Source: Salinispira sp. (lineage in GTDB: Bacteria > Spirochaetota > Spirochaetia > DSM-27196 > Salinispiraceae). From it: a DNA stretch of 64,000 nucleotides. The stretch covers positions 2,432,001 through 2,496,000 of the forward strand of contig OZ271918.1 of the NCBI GenBank assembly GCA_965602015.1. Direction: 5' to 3'. The notes under the pieces were generated by a model, which was given only the letters and a program-made list of their open reading frames with translations, was not told where the DNA came from and searched no databases. The position numbers and the translations under genes are program-made. Positions 10,929 through 23,465 of this stretch are shown one piece after another. Each line of letters begins with the position of its first letter. The first letter of the stretch is position 1.

Positions 10929-12395
10929 ATGCGACGCATCACGGTAGCCCGGGGAGACGGTATCGGCCCCGAAATAATGGATGCCACCCTAAAAATACTT
11001 TCTGCCGCCAAAGCGGAAATAGAACCGGACTTTATTGAAATCGGCGAGGCCCAGTACCTCGCCGGCAACACTGCGGGCATCGGCGACGAAGCCTGGGAGA
11101 GCATCAGGAAAAACCGGGTGGTGCTTAAAGCGCCGATTACCACTCCTCAGGGAGGAGGATACAAGAGTCTCAATGTCACAATCAGGAAGACCCTCGGGCT
11201 CTTCGCGAATGTGCGTCCATGCCGCTCGTTCACCCCGTACGTCGAAACCTATCATCCCCATCTGGACGTGGTCATCATCAGGGAAAACGAGGAAGACCTC
11301 TACGCGGGAATCGAACACCGTCAGACCGTCGACGTGACTCAGGCCCTCAAGCTCATTACCAGGCCCGGGAGCGAACGAATAATCCGCTACGCCTTTGAGT
11401 ATGCCCGGGCATACGGCCGAAAAAAGGTTACGGTAATGATAAAAGACAACATCATGAAGATTACCGACGGCATGTTCCACCGCATCTTTCAGGAAATCAT
11501 GAAAGACTATCCCGATATAGAAACCGAACAGCAAATAATCGATATCGGTACCGCGCGGCTGGCGTCGGCCCCGGAACGCTATGATGTGGTGGTGGCCCCG
11601 AATCTTTACGGTGATATTATTTCCGACGTGGTTGCGGAAATATCCGGGTCAGTCGGCATGGCCGGGTCGGCGAATATCGGCCGGGAAACCGCGATGTTCG
11701 AAGCCATCCATGGATCTGCACCGGACATTGCGGGGAAGAAACTGGCCAATCCCTCAGGACTGATAAACGCCTCGGTCATGATGCTTGTTCACCTCGGGAT
11801 GGCCGAGACCGCGGCACGCATCGAGAACGCCTGGCTGAAGACCATTGAAGACGGAATACACACTGCGGAAATCTACTCGGAGAGCCACAGCAGCCATTTG
11901 GCAAACACCGATGAATTTGCCGACGCGGTCATCGAACGGCTGGGAAGCGGCCCGAAATTCTTTCACGGGGCGGAATTTTCTCTTGAAGCCAAACCGATAG
12001 CGGTGGCGGACTATGTCCGCCCGGATGTCGAAAAGGTGCTGGTAGGGGTGGACGTCTTTCTCGACGACCGAAGCCGTACCCCTGATGAGCTGGGTCAGGC
12101 CCTCGAGCAAATTGCGGCGGCCTGCCGGAGCGAAATTATTCTCAAGGTGATTACCAACCGCGGCGTCAAGGTGTACCCCAAGGGATTTCCCGAGACCTTC
12201 ATTACCGATCACTGGCGCTGCCGCTTCACGTTGAAGGGTGTTCTTCCCAGCGAACCGGCGCCCGGCGCATTGGACGCCGAGTCGGTCATTGAACTTCAGC
12301 AGCTGTTACTTGGAGCCGGTCTCGAAGTGATCAAGACTGAGAATCTGTATTTCTTTGACGGGAAACCCGGCTACTCGCTGGCGCAGGGTGAGTAA
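10929..12395 (+). CDS. icd: NADP-dependent isocitrate dehydrogenase (Thermus/Rickettsia-type with C-terminal extension)
   Basis: GDGIGPEI, KAPITTPQGGGYKSLNV, NLYGDIISD, EAIHGSAPDIAG, TDHWRCRF. Confidence 0.93.
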   Translation: MRRITVARGDGIGPEIMDATLKILSAAKAEIEPDFIEIGEAQYLAGNTAGIGDEAWESIRKNRVVLKAPITTPQGGGYKSLNVTIRKTLGLFANVRPCRSFTPYVETYHPHLDVVIIRENEEDLYAGIEHRQTVDVTQALKLITRPGSERIIRYAFEYARAYGRKKVTVMIKDNIMKITDGMFHRIFQEIMKDYPDIETEQQIIDIGTARLASAPERYDVVVAPNLYGDIISDVVAEISGSVGMAGSANIGRETAMFEAIHGSAPDIAGKKLANPSGLINASVMMLVHLGMAETAARIENAWLKTIEDGIHTAEIYSESHSSHLANTDEFADAVIERLGSGPKFFHGAEFSLEAKPIAVADYVRPDVEKVLVGVDVFLDDRSRTPDELGQALEQIAAACRSEIILKVITNRGVKVYPKGFPETFITDHWRCRFTLKGVLPSEPAPGALDAESVIELQQLLLGAGLEVIKTENLYFFDGKPGYSLAQGE

Positions 12396-14718
12396 CAGCT
12401 TCAGGGTTTGAGTCGGGGGTTTTACCCGCGCCGGCTTCGTCGGCATTCCCGGAGGTTTCGGGCTTTTCGTCAACCGCTTCCTCCGCCTCTTCGCCGGGGC
12501 GGGTGAGCGGCAGGACGAACCAGAACTCGCTGCCGTCGCCCGGCGAGGACGTGAAACCCGCCTCCCCTCCCTGGGCTTCCACGAGTTTACGGCTAATTGC
12601 GAGGCCTAATCCTGTACCCTCGATATCCCGCACATTAAACGTGCGGCCGAATTCCCTGAAAATGAGGTGATGCTCCGCGGGATCAATGCCGATCCCCTGG
12701 TCCCGTACGGAAAAGCGCAGCAGTTCGCGGTTGCGACGGATAACCACCTCAACGGCAAGCTCTACGGTTCCCGAGTCGCTGTATTTAACCGCATTGCTGA
12801 GGAAATTCATAAGTATCTGTTTGACCCGGTAATGGTCAACAACGATTCTCTCGGGGACGTCGGAGGCAATTTGCCGGCTTAGCTCGAGAAGGGCGGTTTT
12901 TCCTTTGGCCCGGCAATAGCTCTCGCCGTGTACCATCGCGTAATTAATTATCTCGCTGAGGCTGCATTCTTCCGGGTGGATATCGATCGATCCCGATTCG
13001 ATTCGGGAAAGGTTGATAACGTCATCGACGATGTGAATCAGGGTCTTTCCCGCCTCGCTGATGTTGCGGTACGCCTTCAGCTTGCCCCGTTCTTCCTCTC
13101 CGATGAGGGCCTCGAGTTTGGCCATGACCGCCCGGGTTTCCTCCATCTCCTGCTTGTTGAGGTTTTTCGATTCCATGCTGTCTGCAAGCTTCCTGTGGAG
13201 ATAATACATGGCGTTCGAGTCTTCAAACAGAAAGTCCCTGATTCCCGCAAGCTCGGCCGGGGCCTTGTCTCCGAGCTTTTCTGACAATTCCTCCAGGAGA
13301 ACCGCCATATCGTCGTTTTTATCGTAGGCCCCGTAGCTCAAAAGGTCGGTAATGCCGCTGATGCTGTTCAGCGGCGTGCGAAACTCGTGATTCATATTCA
13401 CCAGGAACTTCGACTTGTGAACGTTGGCCATTTCCGCGCGGACTCTGGCGGCTTCGGCTTCCTGGGTGCGCTCCCGCACCTTGTCTTCAAGATTCTGCGC
13501 GTACTCGAGAATCTCCCGCCGCTGTTGACGGATCTTGTCGAGGCTGACGGTAAGTTCCCGGGCGAGCAGGTTGAAGCTTCCGGCAAGATCGCCGATCTCG
13601 TCATTGCTGTGAACCGGCAGCTCGTCGAATCCCCGTTCGCTGCCTATGCTTTTGCGCAGGTTCTCGACTCCTTGGTTGAGATTGATGATCGGCGCGACCA
13701 CGTACATGGTGATCAGCAGGCTCATCAACAGGACCAGAATAAAGAGGGCTGAAATTATTACCCAGAGGTATTCGATTTCCTCAGGAGCCCCGAGTTCCTG
13801 GCGGGGTATGGAAACCTGAGCCAGGAGCAGTTCGTCCCGGGTTTGGAGCAGGGGTAGATAGCCTGAAAGTTCCTGGCGCTCGGCATTTTCCAGGGTCGCG
13901 ATGAACTCCGCATCAAAAAAAAGCCGGGAATCCTGACCCGCTTCGCTGTCCGATTGTGTGAGAAACTCGCCAAAATTTCGCATGGCTTCCGGGGGGAGGC
14001 TGATACTTTCAATGCGTTCGGCATATTCATTGATTGCTGTGGAAAAAAACACCGGAACCGTCAGGCGCTCGGGCGGGCTGCCAAGAAGCTCCGCGGTTCG
14101 AACCGAGTAGATGCTGGTTTTCATTCCCGACACCCTTCGAAGAGCATCGAATACGTATGAATCGACGCTTGACTGCACAAGCACAAAATCCGGCTCTTCG
14201 GAACTGCGCTGCCGCCGAAACCCGTTCATGAGCACAATGCGCCCGTCGTCAAAACTGATGCGCTGCAGCGAAGGGCCCTCGCTGTTGAGGTATTCGGGCA
14301 AATCTTCTGGCTCGGGAAAAAATACCGGCAGGACGGCTTCGGGGGGGCAGCATTCGAACGAGCTGTCGTACAGGCTTGCGCCGTCTCTTTGGGCAATAAA
14401 AACACCTCTGCCCTCGCCGAGGATTCGATCCTCACGGGTGAGGGATTCGATGAGAAAATCACCGCTGTCTCCCACTGCCCGGGAAAAGGCAAAGAGGCTG
14501 CGCCACTCCTCATCCAGCAGCGCCAAAAGGCTCGTGCGGCCATACTCGAGATTTGCCATCCGGTTTTGCAGGTTTATGTCGTCGAATTGCTGCTTAACAT
14601 ATACCGCCACTATAGCCGCGGGTACGACCATGACGGCGAGAAAAATTATCGCAAGCTTGACCAGAAGCGAGAGCCGCAGATTCCCCATAAACCTGAGTAT
14701 ACCATCATTCGCGTTCAT
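12331..14718 (-). CDS. Membrane sensor histidine kinase (periplasmic domain, HAMP, HisKA with insertion, HATPase_c)
   Basis: Two TM helices, HAMP (NDEIGDLAGSFN), H-box NHEFRTPLN, N-box NFLSNAVKY, G1 DQGIGI, G2 GTGLGL. Confidence 0.93.
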   Translation of the reverse strand: MNANDGILRFMGNLRLSLLVKLAIIFLAVMVVPAAIVAVYVKQQFDDINLQNRMANLEYGRTSLLALLDEEWRSLFAFSRAVGDSGDFLIESLTREDRILGEGRGVFIAQRDGASLYDSSFECCPPEAVLPVFFPEPEDLPEYLNSEGPSLQRISFDDGRIVLMNGFRRQRSSEEPDFVLVQSSVDSYVFDALRRVSGMKTSIYSVRTAELLGSPPERLTVPVFFSTAINEYAERIESISLPPEAMRNFGEFLTQSDSEAGQDSRLFFDAEFIATLENAERQELSGYLPLLQTRDELLLAQVSIPRQELGAPEEIEYLWVIISALFILVLLMSLLITMYVVAPIINLNQGVENLRKSIGSERGFDELPVHSNDEIGDLAGSFNLLARELTVSLDKIRQQRREILEYAQNLEDKVRERTQEAEAARVRAEMANVHKSKFLVNMNHEFRTPLNSISGITDLLSYGAYDKNDDMAVLLEELSEKLGDKAPAELAGIRDFLFEDSNAMYYLHRKLADSMESKNLNKQEMEETRAVMAKLEALIGEEERGKLKAYRNISEAGKTLIHIVDDVINLSRIESGSIDIHPEECSLSEIINYAMVHGESYCRAKGKTALLELSRQIASDVPERIVVDHYRVKQILMNFLSNAVKYSDSGTVELAVEVVIRRNRELLRFSVRDQGIGIDPAEHHLIFREFGRTFNVRDIEGTGLGLAISRKLVEAQGGEAGFTSSPGDGSEFWFVLPLTRPGEEAEEAVDEKPETSGNADEAGAGKTPDSNPEAVTHPAPASSRVSRQRNTDSQS

Positions 14719-14732
14719 TGTGCATCGCTCCC

Positions 14733-16370
14733 CTAATCGAGAATAAGCCTGATGCGTTGTCCATACGCAGATGGATCGATGTTTTCCTCCTCGAGATAGG
14801 CGAGAAAGACCGGAAGCAGGCTGTCGGCATGCTGGGTAATCACCGGAAACGATGAAAACTGATCATAGCCGTCTCCTCCGCTATAGAGGTAGCTGGTAAT
14901 AGTGACCTGATAAATATCAAGAGTATCGATGGGACTCCCGCCTATTTCCACCCGCTCGGGATTTATGAAATACCCTGCGCCGTCTTCTTCAATCGAAAAG
15001 CGAAGCCCGGATGCCTGGAGGAAACCCTTCTCATTTTCTGGGTCGCCGAAATAGCTAACCGACTGGCGAAGCACATCGAGGATATCCTCCCCGGACATTT
15101 CGATAGAATAAAGCCCGGACTCGAAAGGCAGGAGACTGTAGGCGTCGAAGAGACTAACCGGTCCTGCGGGTAGGTCTCCCCTTATAGAGCCCGAATTGAT
15201 TAGGGCGATATCCGCACCGCTGTAGTCGCGGATGGCATCGCTGATCAGATCCGCCACACCGGAGGGACCGGAAAATCGATGCTCAAGGTCCACGGGCATG
15301 TCCGCAATTTCGGTGTTGAGCTGAGATTCCGAAGCCTGCCGTATGCTGAAAAGAAGTTCGCTAATTTCTTCATCCGGTTCGATGAGGTCCGACCGGAGGG
15401 GAAACTCGTCATATGCCGTCGGACGGCTGTTTCGCACCATCATCCGGTCCATGGTTAACGCATTGTCGCTGCGCCGGTCGTCAACCAGCACCAGCCGTCC
15501 ATGCCAATGGGTGTAGTCCTGCCATGCCGGAATCGCATCCCGGCTAGCCGGCAGGGGATACCAGGGGAGCCGGGGCTGCGGTGCAAGTCCGTCAACCGGC
15601 AGATCCCTCTCGCCGAGAATGAGTAGATCGATAAACTCAAACTCCTCAAGCTCGTCAAGGATGGAGTTTCCGTCGTCGTTGCTTAATTTATGGCTGACGG
15701 CGTTGACTACAATGAACGGGCGCTCGATAGACGGTTCCTGCTCAGCGCGTATTGCCGTCGAATGCTCCGAGGAAAAACGCCGAAGCGCGTCGCGCACCGC
15801 GGCCCCGGGACTGATGAGGTTGAGGCCCGCAACATTTGCCGGGAGATTGCGGGTAATCAGGTTGGGACTGGACAGTCCGATAATAAGCACATTGCTTTCC
15901 CTATCGTAATAGTACGGCTCCAGATAGGGAGGAATTCCGCCGTCAGATGCTTGTCGCAAATTCGCGGACACAAAGGGGAACTCGGCTAACTGGGCCAGCT
16001 CGGCCAGCCTCTGGGTTCCGTAATAAAATTCCCGGGAATCAGCCACCAGCACATCGCAGCCGAGATAATTAAGCAGGTCGATAATGTTTTCACCACGGGA
16101 AAAGTAGGCCGCGGGAGTCCCGTGGATGATATTGTTATCGGCCATAAAAATTGTCGGCTCGGAACCCCGTCTCAAACTGCCGAGCTGAGAGCTTATAAGG
16201 CTGAATCCCCCCTGCCTCAAATCCTGCCCTTCAATGGTTTCGCTGAAAATGGTTCCCTTGAGGGCGTGTATGCTGATGATGTCAAAGTTAGGGGAAAAGT
16301 CCTGCTGACACGAGAGGAAAAGACCCAGCAGGGCCACAAGCGCCAGAAGCGCCGGTTTATTTATCCTCAC
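14733..16370 (-). CDS. 5'-nucleotidase/UshA-fold lipoprotein, apparently catalytically degenerate
   Basis: Lipobox LFLSC; FPFVSANL, NSGSIRGD, LPFE and GGDGY of the 5'-nucleotidase family; metallophosphoesterase motifs altered (see findings). Confidence 0.85.
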   Translation of the reverse strand: MRINKPALLALVALLGLFLSCQQDFSPNFDIISIHALKGTIFSETIEGQDLRQGGFSLISSQLGSLRRGSEPTIFMADNNIIHGTPAAYFSRGENIIDLLNYLGCDVLVADSREFYYGTQRLAELAQLAEFPFVSANLRQASDGGIPPYLEPYYYDRESNVLIIGLSSPNLITRNLPANVAGLNLISPGAAVRDALRRFSSEHSTAIRAEQEPSIERPFIVVNAVSHKLSNDDGNSILDELEEFEFIDLLILGERDLPVDGLAPQPRLPWYPLPASRDAIPAWQDYTHWHGRLVLVDDRRSDNALTMDRMMVRNSRPTAYDEFPLRSDLIEPDEEISELLFSIRQASESQLNTEIADMPVDLEHRFSGPSGVADLISDAIRDYSGADIALINSGSIRGDLPAGPVSLFDAYSLLPFESGLYSIEMSGEDILDVLRQSVSYFGDPENEKGFLQASGLRFSIEEDGAGYFINPERVEIGGSPIDTLDIYQVTITSYLYSGGDGYDQFSSFPVITQHADSLLPVFLAYLEEENIDPSAYGQRIRLILD

Positions 16371-16569
16371 TTAGTATGCTTTCCTCAATGGTCTTAAAAA
16401 AACTGTCCATGTTTGAACGGATTTTCTCCAGGAACTCTTCCTTTTCATCCTCGGCCATATCGTCCATGGCGCCGAGGCACAAAAGGTCTATGAGTCCCTT
16501 GAGCCGATTCATGTTTTCCCGAAGGAGGAAATCCGCCTCTTCCTTGTAGAGTTTCCCGAGTTTGCTCAT
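16357..16569 (-). CDS. Small HisKA/DHp-like protein lacking the phosphoacceptor His
   Basis: 70 aa; overlaps both neighbours (TGATG coupling upstream). DFLLRENMNRLKGLIDLLCLGAMD aligns with the kinase segment NHEFRTPLNSISGITDLLSYGAYD. Confidence 0.75.
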   Translation of the reverse strand: MSKLGKLYKEEADFLLRENMNRLKGLIDLLCLGAMDDMAEDEKEEFLEKIRSNMDSFFKTIEESILSEDK

Positions 16570-20649: not shown

Positions 20650-21828
20650 ATGTCCATAAATCATGCAAATCAACAAGACATAAACCCCTCTCGCCCAAAC
20701 TCAGATGCCCGCGACCGGGAAGTAACCGTCGGGCCGGAAGAAAGCGGGCAGCGGCTGGACCGCTGGCTGGCTGAGCGGTTTCCCCAGCTCAGCCGACGGG
20801 GCTGGCAGGAAAAAATCAGGGACGGTTTAGTGCTGGTAAACGGCCTCCGCTCTGAAAAGGGACGCACTCTTCGCCCCGGTGAAGAGGTCGAAATAGCAGA
20901 GTCCCCGGCCGGAAGGCAGATTTCGACCACCTCGAATCCCGCCGGCCGGGAACCGGCGCACGGGGCATCGGCACATGTGCCCGTGTTGTACACAGACCAG
21001 TGGATAGTGGCGGTGGATAAACCAAAAGGACTGCCCTGCCATCCCCTCAACGGCGGAGAATCCCCCTCCCAGCAAACAGCCCTCAATCTTGCGGCGGACC
21101 TTGACCCGGCGGTGTTGATAGAGCCCGATGGCACCCAAAGCGGGCGGCTGTCGGAGTCCGATATTATGCGGATTCGGCGGGAAGGCGGCCTTTTACACCG
21201 GCTGGACAACGACAGCAGCGGTGTGCTGCTCTTTGCCAGAAGCATTGAGGCCTGGCTGGCCTTCCGCGATGAAATCCAGGGCCGGACTAGCTCCGCAAAA
21301 AAGCACTACCTGGCGCGCTGCTGGGCCGGCGACCGGGTTGCCGACCGGCCGCTCGGTGAACCGGCTGCCGGCCCGGTCGCCGAACTGCTCGCCGAAATAG
21401 CCGCCGGCCCGGGAAGAATAATAAACTATCCGATAGCCCACAGCTCCAGGCGATCGTCGGGCAAAATGATTGCCGTCAAACCCGGTACACAAAAATCAGA
21501 ATACCGGGGCAGCCCGCGCAGCGGGGAAACCGGAATACTCTCCGCCTGCCTCACCGATGAGCCCAGCTGCCTGGTCCTTGCGGAGATCACCCGGGGTCAG
21601 CGGCATCAGATACGCTGTCATTTGGCAGCGGCGGGTCTGCCGCTGGTGGGCGACAGTCTCTACGGCGGTGAACCGGGAGATTTCCTGCTGCATCACAGCC
21701 GCCTGGATTTTTACCATCCATATCTCGGGAAACGGATAGCAATAGAATCAATGCCGGCAAAAGGCCGCTTCGCCGACAGTGAGATTGCTGAATTATGTAA
21801 GGAGATGTTCAGGAAAGCACAGCCCTGA
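20650..21828 (+). CDS. RluA/RluD-family pseudouridine synthase with S4 domain
   Basis: GQRLDRWLA S4 domain, VDKPKGL, HRLDNDSSG, GQRHQIRCH, GDSLYG. Confidence 0.9.
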   Translation: MSINHANQQDINPSRPNSDARDREVTVGPEESGQRLDRWLAERFPQLSRRGWQEKIRDGLVLVNGLRSEKGRTLRPGEEVEIAESPAGRQISTTSNPAGREPAHGASAHVPVLYTDQWIVAVDKPKGLPCHPLNGGESPSQQTALNLAADLDPAVLIEPDGTQSGRLSESDIMRIRREGGLLHRLDNDSSGVLLFARSIEAWLAFRDEIQGRTSSAKKHYLARCWAGDRVADRPLGEPAAGPVAELLAEIAAGPGRIINYPIAHSSRRSSGKMIAVKPGTQKSEYRGSPRSGETGILSACLTDEPSCLVLAEITRGQRHQIRCHLAAAGLPLVGDSLYGGEPGDFLLHHSRLDFYHPYLGKRIAIESMPAKGRFADSEIAELCKEMFRKAQP

Positions 21829-22171
21829 CGGTATTGACCAGGGTGTGTTCTTCCACCGGCTTGGTAAGGTAGGCCTGAGGATCGGTTTTCGCAGCCCGCC
21901 CCTTGGTTGCCGGATCGCTGTGGGCGGTCACATAGACCACGGGAATGTCCCGAAAGAGCTTAACGCGCTTTACCGCGTCCACGCCGTCGATGAAGCTGTT
22001 TATCCGAATATCCATGAGAATGAGGTCGGGGTGATGCTCCATAACCGATGATATGACTTCGTCGCCGCTGTCGATGACGTCGGCTATGTGATATCCGTAG
22101 CGCTCCAGGGTATCCTGCATGGCCAGGCCGACAAGAGCTTCGTCTTCGACAATTAATACTTTCTTACACAT
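21809..22171 (-). CDS. Single-domain response regulator
   Basis: VLIVEDE, DLILMDI, VTAHSD, YLTKP. Confidence 0.92.
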   Translation of the reverse strand: MCKKVLIVEDEALVGLAMQDTLERYGYHIADVIDSGDEVISSVMEHHPDLILMDIRINSFIDGVDAVKRVKLFRDIPVVYVTAHSDPATKGRAAKTDPQAYLTKPVEEHTLVNTVRAVLS

Positions 22172-22298
22172 GGTTATTTCCCCGCGGCGGCCTGGATGTA
22201 ATCCGGCGGCCTGTAAAAAGTATACTGATTTTCAGTAAAGAAAACAGTATTCTTGCCGGCGGGATGCGGATAATTGCCGAAAATAATACTACAGTATC

Positions 22299-23465
22299 AT
22301 GGATATGCGTTTTCCCTTAAACATCCACCATATTCAGGACCATCTCTTTCGCCGGCACCGGTGGCTGGTGCTGCTGGTTTCAAGCGCTTTGTATGCCGGC
22401 GGAATATTACTCTTCGGTCCGCAGCTGAGAGTTTCATCGAACTACCTGGTCGCATTGCCGGTAATTGCCGCGGCCATGGGTTTTGGGTTTTGGGGAGGGT
22501 TCTCGGCGGGAATGCTCGGGTTGCCGGTAAATCTCATCCTGTTTTCCCTCATCGGTTACCCGCAGTTCGCCCCGGAAAGTCTCATAATCGCCGAAGTATT
22601 CGGAATACTCGTGGGGGGCTCCATGGGAGCTCTGGGCGATTACTTCAGAATTCTCAATGAGGAAATCCGCCACAATCAACGCATCGCCAACGAACTTCAG
22701 CAGCAGATCAGCGACAGGGAGGTCCTGATTCAGGAGGTTCACCACCGGGTTAAAAATAACCTGACCCTTATCCTCAGCCTGCTTCAGCTGCAGAGAAATC
22801 AGTTCGACAGCCCGGAATACCGCAACGCCCTTGAAATCGTTTCAGCCCGAATCAGGGCGATCGCCTCGGTTCACGACTATATCTATACCCATGAAACCAG
22901 CACCTCGGTTAACCTCCAGCGTCACCTGCCGGCACTCTGCGAGGCGATAATCGAGAGCCATCAGATTCCGGAAATCAGCTTCCATCACGATGTGCAATTT
23001 AAAACCGGTATCTCACTGCAGAAGGCCACCCCCCTCAGCCTGATAATCCTGGAGATTCTCACCAACTCCTGCAAGCACGCGTTCTCTTCGGAACACGGGG
23101 ACCCCAGAATCTTCCTCTACGGCAGGGAGACTGCAAATGAGTATATATTGATAATTTCTGACAATGGAGCGGTCGCACACGGCGTTTCACCGCTGTCCGA
23201 CAACGCAGCGGCGGTGGCACGGACGGAACGTACAGCCGCAGCGGGCGCAAAAGGCGGCCTGGGATCCACAATTATCAAGGCCCTGACAAGACAGATTCGG
23301 GCGGATCTTATTGTAAACACCGATAAAGGCTATGAATACGTGCTGAAAATTCGAAAATCCGGCCAACCGTTTATGGCGGCGCCGGAAGCGCCTTCGCGGG
23401 CGGGACGCCTGGACCCCGAACCCGAAGAAGAGGGCCGAAATCGGCGCCCCCCTATTTCGCGCTGA
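22299..23465 (+). CDS. Membrane sensor histidine kinase, HisKA_2 (PdtaS-like)
   Basis: N-terminal TM helices, EVHHRVKNNL H-box, EILTNSCKHAF, DNG, GLG; divergent from a receiver gene. Confidence 0.9.
   Translation: MDMRFPLNIHHIQDHLFRRHRWLVLLVSSALYAGGILLFGPQLRVSSNYLVALPVIAAAMGFGFWGGFSAGMLGLPVNLILFSLIGYPQFAPESLIIAEVFGILVGGSMGALGDYFRILNEEIRHNQRIANELQQQISDREVLIQEVHHRVKNNLTLILSLLQLQRNQFDSPEYRNALEIVSARIRAIASVHDYIYTHETSTSVNLQRHLPALCEAIIESHQIPEISFHHDVQFKTGISLQKATPLSLIILEILTNSCKHAFSSEHGDPRIFLYGRETANEYILIISDNGAVAHGVSPLSDNAAAVARTERTAAAGAKGGLGSTIIKALTRQIRADLIVNTDKGYEYVLKIRKSGQPFMAAPEAPSRAGRLDPEPEEEGRNRRPPISR

Follow-up and report, generated by a model that had tools for sequence, protein, structure and literature searches.

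The 64,000-nucleotide stretch of a Salinispira sp. genome analysed here (the window) carries on its minus strand, in this order, genes for a PPC-domain protein, RluA, a single-domain receiver (PF00072; 16569–17006), a 70-residue protein (16357–16569), a 5′-nucleotidase-like protein (14733–16370) and a sensor histidine kinase with HAMP, HisKA and HATPase_c domains (12331–14718). The ATG of the small gene overlaps the stop codon of the receiver gene (TGATG) and its 3′ end overlaps the GTG start of the 5′-nucleotidase-like gene; a scan for promoters and terminators gave no signal above the chance level. A sequence-only reading of this DNA had described the small protein as a mimic of a neighbouring kinase, but its direct neighbour is the receiver and a 1.6 kb gene intervenes before the kinase. 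A second, divergently arranged pair at 21809–23465, composed of a single-domain receiver (21809–22171) and a HisKA_2 kinase, is unrelated to this module.

The small open reading frame encodes no histidine, as had been noted previously, and the protein has 13 homologues (56–81% identity), two of which carry names, Salinispira pacifica and Spirochaeta lutea; the homologue of S. pacifica is 79% identical. In the 15 pairs formed by six genomes of the family, synonymous sites are saturated (pS 0.73–1.03) against a pN of 0.12–0.35, and third positions are invariant in 4 of 58 codons compared with 39 of 58 for second positions. Saturation of pS together with low pN across the six genomes marks the reading frame as selected; it is therefore a real conserved gene under purifying selection.

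The small gene and the kinase gene remain together across the family. The 5′-nucleotidase-like gene lies between them in four of the five relatives whose contigs reach that far and is absent from the fifth (G003), where the two directly abut. Pfam and motif comparison indicate that the metal-binding motifs of the intervening protein are degenerate: the GNHE motif of the solved nucleotidase 3ivd is replaced by DSRE or DTRE in all three orthologues, and its DAGD motif by MADN in the window protein. It is thus likely to be a dead enzyme, and is possibly a nucleotide-binding partner of the outer domain of the kinase. Its N-terminus is lipoprotein-like.

Residues 13–36 of the small protein align without gaps with the kinase segment NHEFRTPLNSISGITDLLSYGAYD, which contains His444, with nine of 24 positions identical and Phe14 (F14; 16528–16530) opposite the histidine, exactly as the sequence-only reading had it. 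A profile of the small-protein family searched against the 21,510 open reading frames of the genome finds this kinase as the best non-self match, although with an E-value (0.072) that is weak alone. Scored in the fixed register, the window kinase ranks first among the 34 H-box kinases of the genome (35.0; the runner-up scores 21.7, and the remaining kinases have a mean of −1.5 and a standard deviation of 12). Scanning 17 shifts of helix 1 gives a sole peak, with Phe14 on the histidine, and scanning 15 shifts of helix 2 gives a sole peak at the HisKA register, in keeping with the earlier suggestion that the second helix resembles that of HisKA. Comparison of the 31-row family alignment with 18 canonical HisKA domains from the same genome using hhalign gave a score of 25.9 (probability 59.8, E-value 8.8 × 10−5), compared with 10.3 for the reversed alignment and at most 15.0 across 100 column shuffles; these 18 kinases with a canonical H-box were picked after a run against a mixed alignment of all 33 other H-box kinases had given a weak result (16.9 versus a shuffle maximum of 15.0).

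The AlphaFold (AF2) model of the protein is a hairpin of two helices, residues 3–31 and 40–69 (pLDDT 89), the second of which (16363–16452) is placed in the HisKA register by the register scan. Searches of the small protein identified no Pfam family at E ≤ 1 and nothing in NCBIfam at E ≤ 0.1, and a scan of PDB sequences with the protein or its profile produced nothing significant; the relatives P0022 and P0023 reach 16.4 and 15.2 bits on PF00512, below the Pfam gathering score of 26.9. Fold comparison is uninformative for a structure of this kind. Foldseek gave a best E-value of 0.64 and nothing at E ≤ 0.001, cannot separate HisKA from other hairpins and lists kinases in four of the top ten and 11 of 40 rows, none of them significant, while a VIA fold search returned generic hairpins; neither search excludes or demonstrates membership of a family. 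Matches in the ESM Atlas (rows of 0.90–0.94 with 135–152 shared features) serve as leads only; for P0029 residues 1–80 the highest-ranking named cluster consists entirely (100%) of HisKA, and for P0001 one cluster is 35% HisKA. Judged by the register scans and the hhalign comparison, the 70-residue protein is a HisKA-derived two-helix hairpin without the phospho-accepting histidine.

Column counts over the 31 rows define a helix-1 motif, D-[FY]-x-L-R-E-x-x-[NST]-x-[LI]-K-G-x-I-D-x-x-x-x-G, spanning Asp13–Gly33 (16471–16533), which is also the predicted receiver-docking face. The histidine position is occupied by Phe in 18 rows and by Tyr in 13. Position H+1 is hydrophobic almost throughout, replacing the HisKA acid; H+3 (Arg17) is Arg in all 31 rows; H+4 (Glu18) is Glu in 30 and Asp in one, replacing the HisKA Thr; and no row has the Pro of H+5. 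Position 21 (H+7) is Asn, Ser, Thr or Gln in every row (Asn in 20, Ser or Thr in ten, and Ser, Thr or Gln together in 11). In HisKA proteins the H+1 acid is needed for kinase activity and the H+4 Thr or Asn for phosphatase activity, according to PMC3510030; since both are replaced, the canonical kinase and phosphatase activities of the domain both look lost. What the domain keeps are receiver-facing residues of the cognate kinase: Arg at H+3, Asn at H+7, Gly at H+11, Asp and Leu at H+14 and H+15 and [FY]G at H+18 and H+19. One fused relative with an HD-GYP domain, P0027, has a histidine at the position that is otherwise Phe or Tyr (DHLLREE) and offers a natural test case for phospho-acceptance.

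The window kinase is assigned as cognate from Pfam, synteny and its rank among the H-box kinases. Its DHp domain (12994–13419, with His444 at 13387–13389), as delimited in the subfamily alignment, has its two helices separated by an inserted helical segment of about 77 residues, and the subfamily as a whole carries 73–86 additional residues inside the hairpin, which the small protein is without; the distance from the histidine to the end of helix 2 is 128–141 residues in 13 cognate relatives, compared with 55–57 in canonical kinases. A conserved Asn lies in the middle of the insertion. The receiver-adjacent kinases have the motif HE[LF]RTPLN[SAT]I[NSA]G[IMV]x[DEG][LM]Lx[FYIC]G, and 12 of 13 of them outscore every other kinase of the window's genome against the small-protein profile. 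On one contig (G428:C42:24600-41000) five insertion-type kinases lie upstream of a receiver and a fusion of the domain to PP2C, a putative many-kinases-to-one-receiver hub. Elsewhere in the genome of the window (G000:C1:3297919-3299604, plus strand) a 561-residue protein has an N-terminal HisKA-like hairpin that keeps its histidine (HELRTYLN), followed, as read from the sequence, by receiver-like and SpoIIE-like domains with no evident ATPase domain.

The receiver belongs to a subfamily in which Asp8, Asp9, Asp56, Thr87 and Lys115 are invariant (26 rows) and which has a conserved helix α1 (NR[YF]VL...FG) and a subfamily-specific C-terminal tail. Among 401 Spirochaetota genomes, 23 match the domain profile at E ≤ 0.001, of which 16, spanning eight families, are strong (E ≤ 4.2 × 10−16). 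The seven weak matches (E-values of 2 × 10−4 to 8 × 10−4) were excluded as five chemoreceptor coils from one genus and two ordinary kinase DHp domains, the latter with a His at the Phe14 register. Receiver orthologues (E ≤ 1 × 10−22) occur in 17 of the 401 genomes, namely all 16 carriers of the domain and one genome (G235; 85% complete) with no domain at E ≤ 0.1; these counts are not independent trials because the genomes are related. Kinases of the cognate type (E ≤ 1 × 10−8) occur in eight of the 401, all among the 16 carriers, and none was found in the other eight carriers. Within the order of the window the domain is confined to the window's family (six of 99 genomes), and the two of seven relatives in that family without it (G004 and G006) are also without the receiver and kinase orthologues.

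The receiver gene lies directly upstream of the small gene in all six genomes with the free form. The domain copies of 14 distant Spirochaetota genomes are fusions, five with PP2C and nine with HD-GYP; the receiver is directly upstream in the five with PP2C fusions and elsewhere in the genome in the nine with HD-GYP fusions. A scan of 40 of the 64 parts of GTDB gave 13 strong receiver matches, all titled as spirochaetes. The domain occurs in six of 80 GTDB receiver loci, each time beside an orthologous receiver and never beside a non-orthologous one, although several of these 80 repeat the loci from the distant genomes and are not independent. The receivers of the six free-form genomes group in a single clade (100/99), and an unstarred branch (84/93) has 16 of the 17 free domains together on one side, with the free copy of G214 grouping among the fused forms; the trees do not fix the root and so do not give the order in which free and fused forms arose. 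Paralogous receivers of the same subfamily are present at L073–L077 (G078, G116 and G214), with up to four per genome and two beside kinases. No output for the window receiver was found in the window's genome.

A family-profile search of 1.84 billion representatives produced 25 hits. In 12 of these, all longer proteins, the domain is N-terminal and an output domain follows it: six SpoIIE/PP2C, two HD (one with the full HD-GYP motif and one cut short), two HisKA plus HATPase, one GGDEF and one adenylate cyclase. Two hits with repetitive sequence (P0035 and P0037) were discarded as chance, and the others are short or partial. A metagenome scan gave no further architecture and mostly returned loci already counted, which are hence not independent. 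All 12 PP2C fusions have linkers that fall in a single heptad register, spread over four length classes (17, 31, 38 and 52 residues), an agreement with a chance probability of about 0.003 for three further length classes by our own estimate; the HD fusion P0027 is 24 residues off the 12 other fusions, which is no multiple of a heptad, and breaks the register. In the model of P0029, helix 2 and the linker form a single 54-residue helix (residues 41–94), so that the second helix of the hairpin is predicted to continue into the output linker. On the evidence of these homologues, the 70-residue protein represents, in free form, a more widespread domain usually joined to signalling enzymes, and is not the stand-alone decoy that had been envisaged. 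By established signalling logic, an N-terminal domain with register-keeping coupling to several unrelated outputs would be an input domain, which in this case likely switches five enzyme classes when fused. The domain further accounts for N-terminal regions that lacked annotation in a group of spirochaete PP2C and HD-GYP proteins.

Modelling of two copies of the domain with the receiver gave a score of 0.69, compared with 0.12 for the best of three controls, none of which included a non-cognate receiver. Although two copies were folded, the score covers the receiver only and not the hairpin homodimer. Of 157 solved complexes 116 attain the mark used, as do two of 215 mismatched pairs. The runs share at least 95% of contacts, with a partner pLDDT of at least 83. 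The predicted contacts involve domain residues 13–37, 46, 49 and 53 and, on the receiver, helix α1 (10–25), residues 115–120 and the subfamily tail (137–142), which is the usual kinase–receiver geometry. The prediction agrees with receiver binding, one of the two options given earlier, but it may echo likeness to solved pairs, since kinase–receiver complexes are among the known structures. The predicted interface is not significantly more conserved than the rest of either protein (p = 0.13 for the domain and 0.08 for the receiver). In a comparison of 13 cognate kinases with 12 others, the helix-1 positions that face the receiver score 22.8 versus 3.8, core positions of helix 1 score 10.8 versus 8.2 and helix 2 scores 5.4 versus 10.0, and is thus no closer to the cognate kinases. 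The receiver-facing positions were chosen with the complex model in view, and the p-values of this comparison overstate its significance because related kinases are not independent.

These observations suggest that the domain is likely a DivL-like, non-catalytic receiver-docking module that acts as an input domain if fused and as a receiver sink if free. In its specific form, which is held with somewhat better than even confidence, this reading has the hairpin dimerizing and binding the co-encoded receiver through the surface of the cognate kinase. The kinase would phosphorylate the receiver, as expected from the invariance of Asp56 and the other active-site residues, and helix α1, the β5–α5 loop and the C-terminal tail of the receiver are predicted to dock on helix 1 of the dimer of histidine-less hairpins. 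In the fused forms, binding would twist helix 2 and, through the coiled coil, the PP2C, HD-GYP, GGDEF, adenylate-cyclase or kinase domain, so that the fused domain would sense a receiver supplied in trans, in the way that DivL senses DivK~P. The free form, made in tandem with the receiver through the overlapping stop and start codons, could act as a stoichiometric sink whose most likely ligand is the phosphorylated receiver, a role proposed by analogy. The presence of a Thr at H+4 suggests that the window kinase also dephosphorylates the receiver; the free form might then shield the phosphorylated receiver from this phosphatase activity and give the pathway a threshold or a memory. Preference for the phosphorylated receiver is the weakest step and an evenly balanced call, the complex model having no phosphorylation state. 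The observation made in the sequence-only reading is therefore confirmed and its interpretation is partly supported: sequestration of the receiver fits the co-occurrence, the retained receiver-facing residues and the complex model, whereas heterodimerization with the kinase is less likely because helix 2 is no closer to the cognate kinases and half of the carrier genomes show no cognate-type kinase at E ≤ 1 × 10−8.

The same docking geometry would also suit a dedicated receiver phosphatase of the CheX/CheC type, in which Glu18-x-x-Asn21 hydrolyses the aspartyl phosphate in the manner of the ExxN motif that CheX uses (PMC3510030). Glu18 occupies H+4, on which the phosphatase activity of HisKA kinases depends; Asn is found at position 21 in 20 of 31 rows, and residues 17–18 and 20–22 lie inside the predicted interface. 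A Glu at H+4 could catalyse hydrolysis or could disfavour the phosphorylated form. This alternative appears unlikely, since the residue required at H+4 in HisKA is Thr or Asn and not Glu (PMC3510030), position 21 is Ser or Thr in ten of 31 rows and matches the docking Asn of the kinase, and a phosphatase role leaves the fusion to five output types through register-keeping coils unexplained.

It is rather improbable that the receiver-bound free domain is instead a trans-acting adaptor, one that would dock on a separate output protein and switch it just as the fused forms would do in cis. Helix 2 is conserved within the free clade, and in G214 (L052:2500-3393, minus strand) a free 67-residue copy ends at the domain boundary with an adenylate cyclase in frame from the next codon (TAAATG). 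This copy groups with the fused forms, however, and may be a recent fission; free forms end before the linker coil and therefore have no evident pairing surface; and the closest matches in the window's genome to the fused outputs are all longer (343–1241 residues) and have other N-terminal regions. At the G214 locus the kinase comes after the adenylate cyclase, and the split could reflect fission, read-through or a sequencing error.

Inhibition of the neighbouring kinase by exchange into its four-helix bundle, for which RetS and GacS provide a precedent (PMC12189002), would fit the rank of this kinase as the closest of 34 and the linkage of the two genes in the family, including their abutment in G003. 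Such heterodimerization is nevertheless very unlikely: the resemblance peculiar to the cognate kinases lies on the side that faces the receiver and does not extend to helix 2, the 73–86-residue insertion of the kinase hairpin is absent from the small protein, and cognate-type kinases were found in only eight of the 16 carrier genomes. The chance that the hairpin is a vestige or a helical look-alike with no signalling role is close to negligible, given purifying selection, the single-register match in both helices and the co-occurrence and co-loss with the receiver, even though no Pfam or NCBIfam hit and no fold match at E ≤ 0.001 was obtained and the profile weakly picks up chemoreceptor coils (five of seven weak hits).

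The domain shares features with several known systems. With HisKA (PF00512) it has in common a two-helix hairpin of equal length and register and, with the cognate kinase subfamily, the docking face, but it falls below the Pfam threshold and has no His, no E/D-x-x-T/N, no Pro and no ATPase domain. Response regulators in which a receiver precedes an output domain include PleD, the RssB/RsbU-like REC-PP2C proteins and REC-HD-GYP proteins. The fused forms have the same coil-plus-enzyme output modules under N-terminal control (linker and catalytic matches in an NCBIfam scan); unlike in those regulators, the receiver is encoded separately, and its place at the N-terminus is taken by what is predicted to be a receiver-docking hairpin.

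The closest parallel is DivL of Caulobacter, which has Tyr in place of the His, shows neither kinase nor phosphatase activity and binds DivK~P through Arg553 (H+3), Thr557 (H+7) and Tyr562 (H+12) (PMC4211667). Both have an aromatic residue at the His position and keep H+3 as Arg and H+7 as a small polar residue, and in both an output domain would be reused as the sensor of a single-domain receiver, as modelled for the present family. DivL, however, has the complete chain of a kinase, PAS and CA domains included, and its H-box is normal in all other respects, whereas the spirochaete domain is the hairpin alone, is also changed at H+1, H+4 and H+5 and is free or N-terminal to unrelated enzymes. 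The 'HisKA, no HATPase' proteins are likewise DHp-like, have no catalytic ATP-binding domain and were proposed to act on receivers, but as described in PMC5847659 they keep the His and have N-terminal sensors and a C-terminal HisKA. The earlier comparison with Sda and KipI holds in that these and RetS-type inhibitors are likewise small or accessory and act at the DHp (PMC12189002); the 70-residue protein has no sequence match to the Sda or KipI family (Pfam E ≤ 1, NCBIfam E ≤ 0.1), and the target of these inhibitors is the kinase, while the present evidence favours the receiver.

In full-text searches of the open literature, no histidine-less DHp was found as the N-terminal input of a PP2C, HD-GYP, GGDEF or cyclase protein, and no description of this spirochaete module was found. 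With confidence only slightly above even, the data point to an undescribed Spirochaetota wiring in which one or more insertion-bearing kinases act on one receiver, which docks on a portable histidine-less DHp input domain. The receiver would then signal neither by phosphotransfer nor through an output domain of its own but by this docking. If this is correct, the DivL principle would exist as a portable 60-residue module swapped onto PP2C, c-di-GMP, cAMP and kinase outputs, with the 70-residue protein of the window as its minimal free form, and the domain could serve as a 60-residue part coupling receiver state to an enzyme. An open question is how a single-domain receiver that lacks an output domain exerts its effect; CheY at the motor and DivK at DivL are the best-known answers. 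The present family offers a named, small, soluble candidate receptor for such a receiver, occurring as a free protein and ahead of five enzyme classes, and this brings the question within reach of simple assays on purified proteins that read out phosphatase activity, c-di-GMP or cAMP.
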